A stretch of 48,200 nucleotides of DNA from IMG/VR virus record IMGVR_UViG_2563366870_000003; one strand, 5' to 3'. The DNA is from a virus. Taxonomy: Duplodnaviria > Heunggongvirae > Uroviricota > Caudoviricetes. Shown in pieces: positions 42,018-48,200 of the stretch; position 1 is the stretch's first letter, and every line of letters starts with the position of its first letter. The notes under the pieces are model-generated. The model made no database searches and had not been told where the DNA came from. It saw only the letters and a program-made list of their open reading frames with translations. A program made the translations under genes and the position numbers.

Positions 42018-45000
42018 ATGGGTAAAGGCAGCAGTAAGGGGCATACCCCGCGCGAAGCGAAGGACAACCTGAAGTCCACGCAGCTGCTGAGTGTGATCGA
42101 TGCCATCAGCGAAGGGCCGGTTGAAGGTCCGGTGGATGGATTAAAAAGCGTGCTGCTGAACAGTACGCCGGTGCTGGACAGTGAGGGGAATATCAATATC
42201 TCCGGTGTCACGGTGGTGTTCCGGGCAGGTGAGCAGGAGCAGACTCCGCCGGAGGGGTTTGAATCCTCCGGTTCCGAGACGGTGCTGGGTACGGAAGTGA
42301 AATATGACACGCCGATCACCCGGACCATCACGTCGGCAAACATCGACCGTCTGCGCTTTACCTTCGGTGTGCAGGCACTGGTGGAAACCACCTCAAAGGG
42401 GGACCGGAATCCGTCGGAAGTCCGCCTGCTGGTTCAGATACAACGTAACGGTGGCTGGGTGACGGAAAAAGACATCACCATTAAGGGCAAAACCACCTCG
42501 CAGTATCTGGCCTCGGTGGTGGTGGGTAACCTGCCGCCGCGCCCGTTTAATATCCGGATGCGCAGGATGACGCCGGACAGCACCACAGACCAGCTGCAGA
42601 ACAAAACGCTCTGGTCGTCATACACCGAAATCATCGATGTGAAACAGTGCTACCCGAACACGGCACTGGTCGGCGTGCAGGTGGACTCGGAACAGTTCGG
42701 CAGCCAGCAGGTGAGCCGTAATTATCATTTTCGCGGGCGCATCCTGCAGGTGCCGTCGAACTATAACCCACAGACGCGGCAATACAGCGGTATCTGGGAC
42801 GGAACGTTAAAACCGGCATACAGCAACAACATGGCCTGGTGTCTGTGGGATATGCTGACCCATCCGCGCTATGGCATGGGGAAACGTCTTGGTGCGGCAG
42901 ATGTGGATAAATGGGCGCTGTATGTCATCGGTCAGTACTGCGACCAGTCGGTGCCTGACGGATTTGGCGGCACGGAGCCGCGCATCACCTGTAATGCGTA
43001 CCTGACCACACAGCGCAAGGCGTGGGATGTGCTCAGTGATTTTTGCTCGGCGATGCGCTGTATGCCGGTATGGAACGGGCAGACGCTGACATTCGTGCAG
43101 GACCGACCGTCGGATAAGGTGTGGATCTATAACCGCAGTAATGTGGTGATGCCGGATGATGGCGCGCCGTTCCGCTACAGCTTCAGCGCCCTGAAAGACC
43201 GCCATAATGCCGTTGAGGTGAACTGGATTGACCCGGATAACGGCTGGGAGACGGCGACAGAGCTTGTGGAGGACACGCAGGCCATTGCCCGTTACGGTCG
43301 TAACGTCACGAAGATGGATGCCTTTGGCTGTACCAGTCGGGGGCAGGCACACCGCGCCGGGCTGTGGCTGATTAAAACGGAGCTGCTGGAAACGCAGACC
43401 GTGGACTTCAGCGTGGGCGCAGAAGGGCTTCGTCATGTACCGGGCGATGTCATTGAAATCTGCGATGATGACTATGCGGGTATCAGCATCGGCGGGCGCG
43501 TGCTGGCGGTGAACAGCCAGGCGCGGACACTGACGCTCGACCGTGAAATCATGCTGCCATCCTCCGCCACCACGCTGATAAGCCTGGTTGACGGAAATGG
43601 CAATCCGGTCAGCGTGGAGGTCCAGTCCGTCACCGACGGCGTGAAGGTGAAAGTGAGCCGTGTTCCTGACGGCGTTGCCGAATACAGCGTGTGGGGGCTG
43701 AAGCTGCCGACGCTGCGCCAGCGCCTGTTCCGCTGTGTGAGTATCCGGGAGAACGATGACGGTACGTATGCCATCACCGCCGTGCAGCATGTACCGGAAA
43801 AAGAAGCCATCGTGGATAACGGGGCGCACTTTGACGGCGACCAGAGCGGCACGGTGAATGGTGTCACGCCGCCAGCGGTGCAGCACCTGACCGCCGAAGT
43901 CACCGCAGACAGCGGGGAATATCAGGTGCTGGCGCGATGGGACACGCCGAAGGTGGTGAAGGGCGTGAGCTTCCTGCTTCGCCTTACCGTGGCAGCGGAC
44001 GACGGCAGTGAGCGGCTGGTCAGCATGGCCCGGACGACGGAAACCACATACCGCTTCAGGCAACTGGCGCTGGGGAACTACAGGCTGACAGTCCGGGCGG
44101 TAAATGCGTGGGGGCAGCAGGGCGATCCGGCATCGGTATCGTTCCGGATTGCCGCACCGGCAGCGCCGTCGCAGATTGAGCTGACACCGGGGTATTTTCA
44201 GATAACCGCCACGCCGCATCTTGCGGTTTATGATCCGACGGTACAGTTTGAGTTCTGGTTCTCGGAAAAGCGGATTGCGGATATCAGGCAGGTTGAAACC
44301 ACAGCACGCTATCTTGGCACGGCGCTGTACTGGATAGCCGCCAGTATCAATATCAAACCGGGCCATGATTATTATTTTTACATCCGCAGTGTGAACACCG
44401 TTGGCAAATCGGCATTTGTGGAGGCTGTTGGCCAGCCGAGTGATGATGCATCCGGCTATCTGAATTTTTTCAAAGGAGAGATAGGGAAAACCCATCTGGC
44501 TCAGGAGTTGTGGACGCAGATTGATAACGGTCAGCTTGCGCCTGACCTGGCTGAAATCAGGACGTCCATTACGGGTGTCAGCAATGAAATCACGCAGACC
44601 GTCAATAAGAAACTGGAAGACCAGAGTGCAGCGATCCAGCAGATACAGAAGGTTCAGGTTGATACAAATAATAACCTGAACAGCATGTGGGCTGTGAAGC
44701 TGCAGCAGATGCAGGACGGACGCCTTTATATCGCGGGTATTGGTGCCGGTATTGAGAATACCCCTGACGGTATGCAGAGTCAGGTGCTGCTGGCGGCGGA
44801 CAGGATTGCGATGATTAATCCTGCGAATGGCAATACAAAGCCGATGTTTGTTGGTCAGGGCGATCAGATATTTATGAATGAAGTGTTCCTGAAATATCTG
44901 ACGGCTCCCACCATTACCAGCGGCGGTAATCCTCCGGCATTTTCCCTGACACCGGACGGGCGGCTGACGGCGAAAAATGCGGATATCAGCGGTAACGTGA

Positions 45001-45500
45001 ACGCGAACTCCGGGACGCTCAACAATGTCACGATTAATCAGAACTGCCGGATTCTGGGAAAACTGTCAGCCAACCAGATTGAAGGCGATATTGTTAAAAC
45101 GGTGGGAAAAGCCTTTCCGAGAAATAGCAGTTATGCCAGCGGTACAATAACGGTCACGGTGTACGATGACCAGGCTTTTGACCGTCAGATAGTAATCCCC
45201 CCCGTTCTGTTTCGCGGTGGTAAGCATGAAAACTTCAACAGCAACAACCAACAGTCATACTGGTATTCAACCTGTAAGCTGCAGGTGCTGAAGAACGGAC
45301 AGGAAATCTTTCAGCAACCCGCGACGGATGTCAGCAGGGTATTTTCATCAGTCATTGATATGCCTGCCGGACACGGCCATGTCACCCTGACTTTCAATGT
45401 TTCTTCATATGGTGCTAATAACTGGACGCCAACGACCAGTATCAGCGACCTTCTTGTTGTTGTGATGAAGAAATCTACAGCCGGTATCAGTATCAGTTGA
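42018..45500 (+). CDS. J: Central tail fibre / host-specificity protein J, 1160 aa
   Basis: Lambda J-like along most of its length; 28 aa longer than lambda J. Confidence 0.95.
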
Positions 45501-45558
45501 ATTTTATAACCCAGATACGGGTGCCAGAAATGGCGCCTTTTTTATTTGTGGAGTGAAT

Positions 45559-47619
45559 ATGGCAGTACAGATTTCAGGCGTGCTGAAAGACGGTGCAGGA
45601 AAACCGATACAGAACTGCACCATTCAGCTCAAAGCAAAACGTAACAGCACCACGGTTGTGGTGAACACGGTGGCCTCAGAAAATCCGGATGAAGCCGGAC
45701 GTTACAGCATGGATGTCGAGTATGGCCAGTACAGCGTTATCCTGCTGGTTGAAGGTTTTCCGCCTTCACATGCCGGGACCATCACCGTGTATGAGGATTC
45801 TAAGCCGGGGACGCTGAATGATTTTCTGGGCGCTGCAACAGAAGATGATGTTCGTCCGGAGGCACTGTATCGTTTTGAAAAGATGGTGGAAGAGGTGGCA
45901 CGCAACGCTGAAGCCGCCTCTCAGAGCGCAGCGGCAGCAAAGAAATCAGAAACAGCAGCGGCATCGTCCAGGAATGCGGCGAAAACATCAGAGACGAATG
46001 CAGGTAACAGCGCGAAAGCGGCAGCTTCTTCAAAAACAGCCGCACAAAACGCAGCAACAGCGGCAGAACGTTCAGAGACAAATGCCCGTGCGTCAGAAGA
46101 AGCCTCCGCAGACAGTGAAGAGGCTTCCCGCCGTAATGCAGAGTCAGCCGCTGAAAATGCCGGAGTCGCCACCACAAAAGCGCGGGAGGCCGCAGCAGAC
46201 GCAACAAAGGCCGGGCAGAAAAAGGATGAGGCTCTGTCGGCAGCGACACGGGCTGAAAAGGCGGCAGACCGCGCAGAAGTCGCAGCGGAAGTGACTGCAG
46301 AGCCCTATGCGAATATAGTGCCGCCGCTGCCTGATGTGTGGATACCGTTTAACGATTCACTGGATATGATTGCGGGTTTTTCTCCGGGCTATAAAAAAAT
46401 AGCTATTGGTGACGATGTGGTTCAGGTCGCCAGTGATAAACAGGTTAATTTCAGTCGCGCATCAACGGCAACATATATCAACAAATCTGGCGAACTGAAA
46501 ACGGCGGAAATTAATGAGCCGCGATTTGAGTGTGATGGCCTGCTTATTGAGGGACAAAGAACGAACTACATGCTCAATTCGGAAAGTCCAGCCAGCTGGG
46601 GGAAGTCATCAAACATGGATGTGCCCGAAACCGGGACAGATAGTTTTGGTTTTACTTATGGAAAGTTTGTCTGCAACGATTCTCTGGTTGGGCAAACTTC
46701 GGCTATTAATATGGCATCAATTGCTGCAACAAAGTCAGTTGATGTCTCAGGCGATAACAAGTACGTGACAACCTCATGCCGTTTTAAAACAGAACGACAG
46801 GTAAGGTTACGTATACGGTTTGATAAGTATGATGGTAGTGCAACAACTTTTCTTGGCGATGCGTACATTGATACGCAAACGCTTGAAATTAATATGACAG
46901 GTGGGGCTGCCGGCAGAATTACGGCACGAGTCAGGAAGGATAAGACCACAGGCTGGATTTTTGCAGAGGCAACGATTCAGGCAATTGATGGTGAGTTAAA
47001 AATAGGCTCTCAGATACAGTATTCTCCTGAGCAGGGTGGGGCAACAGTATCTGGTGACTATATTTATCTTGCCACCCCACAAGTAGAGAATGGGCCGTGT
47101 GTATCATCATTTATTATTTCAGGAGGCAGCGCAACGACAAGAGCCAGTGATTTGGTTAGTATCCCCACCAGAAATAATCTTTATAAGTTACCATTTACTT
47201 TTTTACTTGAGATTCATAAAAACTGGGATATTGCACCAAACGCCGCACCCCGCGTGTGGGATATAGCAGCAGCCAATACCGGGCAATCAGCAATTGCAGC
47301 AATCAACAGAGGTAGTGGTAAGTTATATATGAGTCTGTCAAACCCTTCAGGCTCGTATGTTAATAGCGCAGCGACAGATGTATTTGCAGAGAAAACCACA
47401 TTTGGATGTATTGCAAAAGCTGATGGTCACTTTCATGTGGTGACAAATGGTAAAGCGGTTAATGAAGTTTATTGTGAATATAATGGCGTGACCGCTGATA
47501 AAAATATCCGATTTGGAGGGCAGACGAACACTGGAGAACGACATCTGTTTGGCCATATTCGCAATTTCCGCATATGGCATAAAGAATTAAATGACAGGCA
47601 ATTAAAAGAGGTCGTATGA
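45559..47619 (+). CDS. stf: Side tail fibre protein (lambda-Stf-like N-terminus, Ala-rich central region, distinct C-terminal domain), 686 aa
   Basis: ATG at 45559 after GGAG; N-terminus MAVQISGVLKDGAGKPIQNCTIQLKAKRNSTTVVVNTV… resembles lambda Stf; C-terminus ends …IRFGGQTNTGERHLFGHIRNFRIWHKELNDRQLKEVV, which looks like a lectin/LamG-type jelly-roll. Confidence 0.8.
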   Translation: MAVQISGVLKDGAGKPIQNCTIQLKAKRNSTTVVVNTVASENPDEAGRYSMDVEYGQYSVILLVEGFPPSHAGTITVYEDSKPGTLNDFLGAATEDDVRPEALYRFEKMVEEVARNAEAASQSAAAAKKSETAAASSRNAAKTSETNAGNSAKAAASSKTAAQNAATAAERSETNARASEEASADSEEASRRNAESAAENAGVATTKAREAAADATKAGQKKDEALSAATRAEKAADRAEVAAEVTAEPYANIVPPLPDVWIPFNDSLDMIAGFSPGYKKIAIGDDVVQVASDKQVNFSRASTATYINKSGELKTAEINEPRFECDGLLIEGQRTNYMLNSESPASWGKSSNMDVPETGTDSFGFTYGKFVCNDSLVGQTSAINMASIAATKSVDVSGDNKYVTTSCRFKTERQVRLRIRFDKYDGSATTFLGDAYIDTQTLEINMTGGAAGRITARVRKDKTTGWIFAEATIQAIDGELKIGSQIQYSPEQGGATVSGDYIYLATPQVENGPCVSSFIISGGSATTRASDLVSIPTRNNLYKLPFTFLLEIHKNWDIAPNAAPRVWDIAAANTGQSAIAAINRGSGKLYMSLSNPSGSYVNSAATDVFAEKTTFGCIAKADGHFHVVTNGKAVNEVYCEYNGVTADKNIRFGGQTNTGERHLFGHIRNFRIWHKELNDRQLKEVV

Positions 47620-47894
47620 AAGATTTAACTTTGAAGTTTCATGACAAACTGCAGTTTAAGGCCTTCCTGTCATCTCTTGGCTGGGCGGAAGATGAAGACC
47701 TCCAGAATAAACTGTTAGTTGATGAAATTGGTTTCACCTACACAGAAACAGGGGTAACAGAAGAGGGAGAACCTGTCTGTATCCGGAATGATGGTTATTT
47801 TGTCAACATTCGCATTCTTGATGACTTGTTTGATGTTTCTGTATTCTCTGATTATGTCGTGGAGCTGGAAACACCGCTTCGGGAATGGAGCTGA
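47616..47894 (+). CDS. Hypothetical protein downstream of stf, 92 aa
   Basis: ATG overlapping stf stop (ATGA); acidic; does not resemble the lambda Tfa chaperone. Confidence 0.45.
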   Translation: MKDLTLKFHDKLQFKAFLSSLGWAEDEDLQNKLLVDEIGFTYTETGVTEEGEPVCIRNDGYFVNIRILDDLFDVSVFSDYVVELETPLREWS

Positions 47895-47906
47895 AAGGAG
47901 GAAATA

Positions 47907-48200
47907 ATGGATATAAGCCCCTTACTTCATGCACTTTGTGCTGTGGCTGCGCAGATACTGGTTGGTCTTTTTACCGGAAACTGGGCTTACGGAGCGATAG
48001 CCGGTTGTACGTTCTTCATTGCGCGTGAACATACCCAGGCAGAATATCGCTGGATTGAAATGTTCGGGCATGGCAAGCGAATGAATATGCCGTGGTGGGG
48101 CGGTTTTGATCCGCGTGCTTGGGATGTGGCAAGCCTGATGGATTTTGCTGTGCCGGTGGTGGCGTGTCTGCTGGTCTGGCTGTTGGTTAATCGTGGGTGA
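47907..48200 (+). CDS. Small membrane protein, 97 aa
   Basis: ATG at 47907 after AAGGAGG; two predicted TM segments (AVAAQILVGLFTGNWAYGAIAGCTFFI and FAVPVVACLLVWLLV). Confidence 0.5.
   Translation: MDISPLLHALCAVAAQILVGLFTGNWAYGAIAGCTFFIAREHTQAEYRWIEMFGHGKRMNMPWWGGFDPRAWDVASLMDFAVPVVACLLVWLLVNRG

Follow-up and report, generated by a model that had tools for sequence, protein, structure and literature searches.

A phage 21-like side tail fibre cassette combining a predicted lectin-type distal module, a coupled small gene and a separable membrane protein gene

Host recognition begins with the side and lateral tail fibres, which are the components exchanged when phage particles are re-targeted. 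In phage lambda, the side tail fibre Stf (orf-401/orf-314) combines an anchor domain with an alanine-rich shaft; its gene lies after J and is followed by a small gene, tfa. Lambda Tfa, P2 gpG and Mu Tfa are Caudo_TAP chaperones, which are encoded directly after the fibre gene and are swapped together with the fibre tip by recombination. Here, we analyse the distal tail genes of a 48,200-nucleotide (nt) stretch of DNA from a tailed virus (Caudoviricetes; IMG/VR record IMGVR_UViG_2563366870_000003), hereafter the window. Positions 45,559 to 48,200 carry a side tail fibre gene (stf) and two small open reading frames (ORFs), which encode an acidic protein of 92 amino acids (aa) and a membrane protein of 97 aa. 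This locus shares with lambda the anchor domain, the shaft, the position after J and the presence of a small gene after the fibre. It differs in that the distal half of the fibre is unrelated, the gene following the fibre is not tfa by sequence, Pfam or predicted fold, and lom is missing.

The closest described locus is that of Escherichia phage 21. A 2.8-kb region is 99.4% nt identical to phage 21 (OL657228), and equally near to ev017, mEp460 and PhiR63_2. The two loci agree in gene order, in ATGA coupling, in the terminator that follows J and in having the sitABCD operon downstream, with essentially no difference between them. In the phage 21 record, the three genes are CPT_21_22, CPT_21_23 and CPT_21_24, labelled ‘side tail fiber’, ‘hypothetical protein’ and ‘putative membrane protein’, and sitABCD follows on the other strand. 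The fibre itself therefore belongs to a familiar type, the phage 21 side tail fibre, with a widespread lateral-tail-fibre distal module. The cassette sequence is also already public and annotated, and it is common in E. coli prophages. At least 80% of window positions 44000-48200 is present in 531 of 5426 complete E. coli genomes, several of which are 100% identical. We found no prior description of the module's invariant coupling to a small non-Tfa protein, or of a tfa scar. The searchable literature yielded no functional study of any of the three products, and nothing specific on phage 21 Stf or sitABCD.

Our best overall explanation, to which we assign a probability of roughly 0.6, is a phage 21-like cassette made up of a recombinant fibre with a lectin-type tip, a 92-aa accessory and a separable 97-aa envelope protein. 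In this view, the cassette varies the theme of a fibre that comes with its own accessory, the accessory's mechanism being putative. We find that the three genes took the place of the distal part of stf and of tfa by recombination. Beyond the 97-aa stop codon lies a scar of tfa, 20 codons reading ATEEETPLLEARKKYRVLL and 80% identical to lambda Tfa 156-175. Because this 3' scar persists, and because a P2-like prophage with the same module keeps a Caudo_TAP remnant, we conclude that fibre tip and tfa were replaced together. Sequence comparison places one breakpoint near Stf residue 250 and the other within the conserved 3' portion of tfa. The first-pass annotation, made from the sequence alone, had allowed for a Tfa-like chaperone just past the window end; sitABCD lies there instead, and the scar is the only trace of tfa. 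Every feature that this annotation described was found at its given position, and its functional hints for the two small proteins are compatible with our results.

The proximal part of the fibre is clearly lambda-like. As the first-pass annotation had noted, a lambda-type N-terminus is followed by an alanine-rich segment: aa 1-158 are 75% identical to lambda orf-401, and the alanine-rich repeats align too. The phage_tail_N domain (PF08400) is matched at aa 3-133 with 230.9 bits (cutoff 26.6; E 5e-69), and aa 1-94 match the PDB 9e7m chain ‘Tail fiber protein’ (E 2.8e-50). The shaft segment, residues 105-250, is 34% alanine and can be aligned to the repeats of the lambda shaft. From about residue 251 (‘PLPDVWIPFNDSLDM’), Stf is unrelated to lambda Stf, and BLASTP to orf-314 gives no alignment better than E 5.7, in agreement with the unrelated distal half described in that annotation. 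Homology to non-lambdoid and P2-like fibres begins at this junction (aa 251-328). The junction motif is retained even in the relative L177, despite an overall fibre identity of 28%.

Profile matches divide the distal module into two domains. Residues 329-529 match NF048003 (GTA_spike_fiber, ‘phage head spike fiber domain’) at 55.7 bits against a cutoff of 36, within the range of 50-124 bits seen in relatives. In a phmmer search, aa ~297-543 match Rcc01080 of RcGTA (PDB 6tb9_F3; E 6e-10). The C-terminus had been described as resembling a LamG or concanavalin-type jelly-roll, and a Laminin_G_3 (PF13385) match at aa 562-683 supports this type. The match is marginal: full-length Stf scores 24.6 bits and so misses the gathering score of 27.6, which the 160-aa C-terminus alone exceeds with 28.1 bits. 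Laminin_G_3 is also matched by 12 of 14 diverse relatives (E<0.01), and the domain has a conserved end motif, GGQT..G.RHLFGH.RN.R.WHK.L.D.QL. Searching PDB sequences with a LamG-domain profile returned nothing meaningful. Peptidase_S74 (PF13884) has no match in Stf and was seen only in the optional second fibre of relatives.

The distal module is most likely to bind a surface glycan, judging by its homologues. Rcc01080 (GhsB), a flexible appendage made of a single subunit, binds capsular polysaccharide, and its AlphaFold model has been described as beta-rich, ‘as in lectins’ (PMC7296036, PMC10218006). Only residues 44-285 of this 325-aa, capsid-borne protein align with Stf, all within the spike-fibre part and none within LamG. 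By contrast, the Stf domain belongs to the tip of a tail fibre that is presumably a trimer, and is followed by LamG and the 92-aa gene. In the T5-like phage IrisVonRoten, Gp22 is modelled as the proximal fibre, from which a ‘galectin-like’ C-terminal domain protrudes (PMC11990801). The lateral tail fibres of T5-like and small siphoviruses are thought to bind O-antigen (PMC8594841, PMC11990801). We propose that Stf is a recombinant fibre in which a lambda-type anchor and an alanine-rich shaft bear a mobile distal module of ~435 aa. The module would comprise two beta-rich, lectin-type domains, the first like a GTA head-spike fibre and the second of the Laminin_G_3 type. It would provide reversible primary adsorption via a surface polysaccharide (O-antigen, capsule or another glycan).

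The distal module is found on fibres of otherwise distinct phages. In a non-lambdoid, siphophage-like prophage, a 704-aa protein shares just its last 435 residues with Stf (54% identity), and a 92-aa homologue, also 54% identical, lies directly after it. A P2-like prophage carries the module at 88% identity, joined to a P2-type H fibre N-terminus (PF12571). Downstream of it come the 92-aa ORF (90%), the 97-aa ORF (81%) and the Caudo_TAP remnant, which is 74 aa long and of the P2 gpG type. The module also occurs in the lateral tail fibres of T5-like, Dhillonvirus, rV5-like, Drexlerviridae and Nonagvirus phages. Module and small gene are found together in the virulent phages IrisVonRoten (T5-like; Gp22 and Gp23), KarlBarth (Dhillonvirus), EmilHeitz (rV5-like), tunus (Drexlerviridae) and JenP1 (Nonagvirus). 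These five loci (in IrisVonRoten, Bas32 Gp22-Gp23-Gp24) share the module at 40-57% identity, and their small gene overlaps the fibre stop. They differ from the window in having a second fibre gene after the small gene, no 97-aa protein and other fibre N-termini. Clustering at 80% resolves seven allele types of the spike-fibre domain, eight of the LamG domain and five of the small protein, in shuffled combinations.

The 92-aa protein is invariantly coupled to the distal module. As described in the first-pass annotation, it is acidic (isoelectric point 4.2; 20 D+E against 8 K+R), and its start codon overlaps the stf stop in an ATGA. We surveyed 171 loci from IMG/VR and other sources, and the homologue's start overlaps the upstream fibre stop in every one (by 4 nt in 137 and by 1 nt in 34). 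Wherever the sequence continues past an intact module, a small gene is present; the sole exceptions are copies that are truncated or disrupted by an insertion sequence (IS). The pair is retained at 26-32% fibre identity in L177, Leclercia, Silvania and Atlantibacter. It is also present in the Aeromonas T5-like phage AhP_Mru1 and in the alphaproteobacterium Martelella, where the overlap is 8 nt. Homologous small genes in relatives encode 85-110 aa. Residues D3, L6, N64 and R66 and a C-terminal PxRxW are invariant in the protein. The family is small, with 77 matches among 1.84 billion representatives in a profile search, essentially all of 85-120 aa. Neither that search nor the loci examined revealed any other genomic context. 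Large proteins matching the 92-aa profile were spurious TPR or PKD repeat proteins, with no informative fusion among them.

The 92-aa protein occupies the genetic position of Tfa without being a Tfa. It lies directly downstream of the fibre and is co-inherited with it across seven or more phage groups. The first-pass annotation had found no Tfa-like gene after stf, and had suggested structure prediction of the small protein. AlphaFold2 predicts an alpha/beta fold (predicted local distance difference test score, pLDDT, 90) with no Tfa-like match, and we reject assignment to Tfa or Caudo_TAP (PF02413), for which Pfam, NCBIfam and BLASTP matches are lacking as well. The protein is half the size of the Caudo_TAP chaperones, has no sequence similarity to them, and its alleles do not track tip alleles. 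It has no match in Pfam, NCBIfam or PADLOC (none at E<=1 in the last), and belongs to PHROG 1361, ‘unknown function’. It is the module's obligatory genetic partner, placed like Tfa in lambda and gpG in P2, and we suggest that it is a dedicated fibre accessory. Such an accessory might help the distal module to fold or assemble, or might remain attached to the fibre as a small adaptor, which in relatives could contribute to docking a second fibre protein. Translational coupling would hold the 92-aa protein stoichiometric with Stf. If the protein binds the fibre, it should contact conserved parts, namely the junction or the invariant C-terminal strand motif.

Other explanations of the 92-aa protein can be weighed against this dedicated role. 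The main one is that it is a pure connector for a second, distal fibre, producing a branched fibre, and that it is a leftover in the phage 21-type cassette. A second fibre gene does follow the 92-aa gene directly in virulent relatives and in 26 lambdoid loci. These second fibres have a common N-terminus, ‘MVTKTxIPxDITxLK’, in lambdoid, T5-like, Nonagvirus, Drexlerviridae and Dhillonvirus phages, which points to docking on a shared partner. The BASEL authors' model likewise has Gp24 docking on the proximal fibre Gp22 (PMC11990801). Yet 124 loci, including the window, have no second fibre and still keep the 92-aa ORF intact and coupled, and the second-fibre N-terminal motif was not found anywhere in the window. 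The ratio of nonsynonymous to synonymous substitution rates (dN/dS) for the 92-aa ORF is 0.35 without a second fibre and 0.55 with one, so there is no relaxation. Because the loci without a second fibre keep the gene under comparable constraint, we favour a function linked to the distal module of the proximal fibre itself, and regard a pure connector as unlikely.

The distal end of the lambdoid tail operon is also a known cargo site, and sitABCD follows the cassette here. The two small ORFs could accordingly be unrelated morons, lysogenic-conversion cargo that hitch-hikes beside stf and has no fibre role. Neither small protein has a family annotation, and the 97-aa family occurs apart from stf-type fibres, even outside prophages. 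For the 92-aa ORF, such an origin is very unlikely given coupling in 171 of 171 loci. Strictly virulent phages carry that ORF too, its range spans Alpha- and Gammaproteobacteria, and it was never seen in another context. Cargo status for both ORFs together is improbable in our estimation. We give still less credence to an enzymatic distal module, in which a glycanase or lyase of the ConA-like lectin/glucanase superfamily would have the 92-aa protein as its intracellular inhibitor or immunity partner. The GH16 catalytic motif was not found in Stf.

Several points weigh against the combination of a glycan-binding module, a dedicated 92-aa fibre accessory and a 97-aa envelope protein. AlphaFold2 on Stf aa 249-686, with an alignment of 14 sequences, reached a pLDDT of only 48; its secondary structure is all-beta, but it is unusable for a fold search. 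The lectin fold is consequently backed by profile matches, one of them marginal, and the case for glycan binding is one of homology, to Rcc01080 and to lateral tail fibres. For the 92-aa protein, the physical link to Stf is inferred from genetics. Its alleles are shuffled against those of both distal domains (5 x 8 x 7 types) without specific pairing, so it is not tied to one receptor-binding allele as a tip-specific chaperone might be. RcapMu gp58, which has the spike-fibre domain only and no LamG, lacks a 92-aa-type neighbour. The RcGTA head-spike fibre has been made as a functional recombinant fusion without any partner (PMC10218006). From these two cases, the first distal domain, at least, folds alone; RcapMu gp58, as a single case, hints that the 92-aa partner goes with the full two-domain module. 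The 97-aa family, finally, also exists as a stand-alone chromosomal gene in Aeromonas, and the 97-aa protein has no PADLOC match (none at E<=1).

The 97-aa protein is separable from the fibre. The first-pass annotation had proposed a two-transmembrane protein, and hydrophobic segments of transmembrane length are indeed present at aa ~3-24 and ~74-95. Its family is broader than that of the 92-aa protein, with 577 matches and 57-60% identity even in Aeromonas and Comamonas. The gene follows the cassette in lambdoid and P2-like prophages, gpJ in a Comamonas prophage and the tailspike gene in the epsilon15-like prophage phiv142-3. The phiv142-3 paper was set aside as a source on this homologue, as it concerns the neighbouring tailspike gene. 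The examined virulent phages that carry the module lack the 97-aa gene. In the Aeromonas rivipollensis chromosome, a 57% identical homologue stands alone (L015:6001-6309), flanked by pirin and RIO1 kinase genes and with lipid A acyltransferases nearby; no phage genes surround it.

Small inner-membrane proteins of superinfection exclusion or conversion are known beside tail genes, such as HK97 gp15, T4 Imm and the O-antigen-conversion proteins of epsilon15. The 97-aa protein can be likened to these by description only: it is small, predicted to lie in the membrane, confined to temperate phages and encoded beside a receptor-binding-protein gene. We suggest that it is a separable passenger after the receptor-binding-protein genes of temperate phages. 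It would act in the envelope of the lysogen, through superinfection exclusion or by altering a receptor or glycan pathway. This role is speculative, but it fits a small membrane protein that is found only in temperate phages among module carriers and after receptor-binding genes.

Conservation and purifying selection (dN/dS 0.35 for the 92-aa ORF and 0.17 for the 97-aa ORF) mark both small ORFs as genuine genes rather than chance ORFs. The features of the locus are listed below.

Table 1. Features of the stf cassette and related loci. Coordinates are window positions, except where preceded by the handle of another locus.
Feature	Coordinates	Strand	Remarks
J	42018-45500		Ends at 45500, then 58-nt spacer
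J-stf spacer	45501-45558	+	Terminator-like hairpin 45519-45538 plus T-run; stf ribosome-binding site (RBS) GGAG 45550-45553
stf, side tail fibre, 686 aa, one unbroken ORF	45559-47619	+	ATG 45559; phrog_1419 tail protein
Stf aa 1-133, lambda-type virion-anchor domain (phage_tail_N)	45559-45957	+	PF08400
Stf aa 105-250, alanine-rich repetitive shaft	45871-46308	+	Likeness to lambda Stf shaft repeats
Stf aa 251-328, conserved junction ‘PLPDVWIPFNDSLDM...’	46309-46542	+	Left recombination boundary; distal module starts here
Stf aa 329-529, GTA head-spike-fibre-type domain (predicted beta-rich, lectin-like)	46543-47145	+	NF048003
Stf aa 562-683, C-terminal Laminin_G_3 (ConA-like) domain, marginal match	47242-47607	+	PF13385
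92-aa acidic protein ORF	47616-47894	+	ATGA overlap with stf stop; PHROG 1361
RBS AAGGAGG of 97-aa ORF	47895-47901	+	
97-aa two-transmembrane protein ORF	47907-48200	+	PHROG 1443; stop codon is the window's last base
tfa scar	L182:10221-10280 (NZ_CP023388)		20-80 nt past the 97-aa stop, just beyond the window
74-aa Caudo_TAP remnant	L013:7612-7836 (P2-like prophage)		Place matches that of the tfa scar
Second fibre genes in relatives	L145:4593-5633; L179:5590-7314; L186:4099-5154; L185:4096-4833; L180:5053-5349		

The 92-aa and 97-aa ORFs are separated by 12 bases. The hairpin in the J-stf spacer corresponds to an annotated terminator in the phage 21 record. A longest-ORF listing starts stf at GTG 45553, a position inside the RBS, and the downstream ATG was taken as the start. 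No lom gene follows J, in line with the first-pass annotation: the spacer measures 58 nt, and tblastn with lambda Lom is negative. The same search with lambda Tfa and orf-314 found no homologue in the window either. A lom gene does occur in the related prophages L009-L010.

The window represents a phage 21-like prophage at the icd attachment site, with sit as cargo. In NZ_CP023388 (L182), which is 100% identical to window positions 44000-48200, the cassette is followed by sitDCBA and then by an icd fragment (L182:14655-14822). The sitABCD iron/manganese transporter operon lies on the opposite strand directly past the cassette (L001:7893-11342, L182:10293-13742). J is 83% identical to lambda J, with sharp divergence at aa ~835-900 and in the final ~150 residues. 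Because the latter stretch is the receptor-recognition end, the central fibre's receptor specificity probably differs from that of lambda.

RefSeq/PGAP splits the intact 686-aa stf (L182:7560-9620) into a pseudogene N-fragment and a separate ‘phage head spike fiber domain-containing protein’. The ORF has no break, so this split is an annotation artefact, and it affects many E. coli genomes. Some relatives (L030 and L129 in IMG/VR; Lambda_4B5, LR595863) have a ~2.7-kb insertion ~45 codons before the end of stf, and an IS4 InsG transposase is annotated there in Lambda_4B5. Copies of the module with 40-72% protein identity appear in MG065692 (Campylobacter phage C13), MG065676 (A116) and OR849447/OR848352 (Listeria phage LM 4-14-1). 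Mislabelling, or contamination with coliphage sequences, probably explains how an enterobacterial fibre module comes to stand in records labelled as Campylobacter and Listeria phages. In the phage 21 record, a CII-binding-site consensus (ttgynnnnnnttgy) is annotated on the minus strand in the alanine-rich part of stf (L001:5645-5658, window ~46044-46057). This match is likely to be due to chance.

The basic picture of the lambdoid tail is unchanged by these results, which would not surprise a specialist. Their value lies in a concrete annotation for two ‘hypothetical’ families. We tentatively consider, at somewhat less than even odds, that the acidic proteins of ~95 aa in PHROG 1361 are an unrecognised, widespread accessory class, either chaperones or adaptors bound to the fibre, that replaces Tfa or gpG for spike-fibre plus LamG tips, and that the 97-aa protein is a new, broadly conserved exclusion or envelope factor. 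The lectin-type tip is among the commonest in E. coli prophages, and is common also to many virulent coliphages. The 97-aa protein is a candidate for a conserved envelope or exclusion function of prophages. If the 92-aa protein is needed for fibre assembly or branching, it would be a missing component for fibre engineering and for host-range prediction from sequence. It would represent a non-Tfa solution to fibre assembly, and its gene would have to travel with the module onto lambda or P2 particles.

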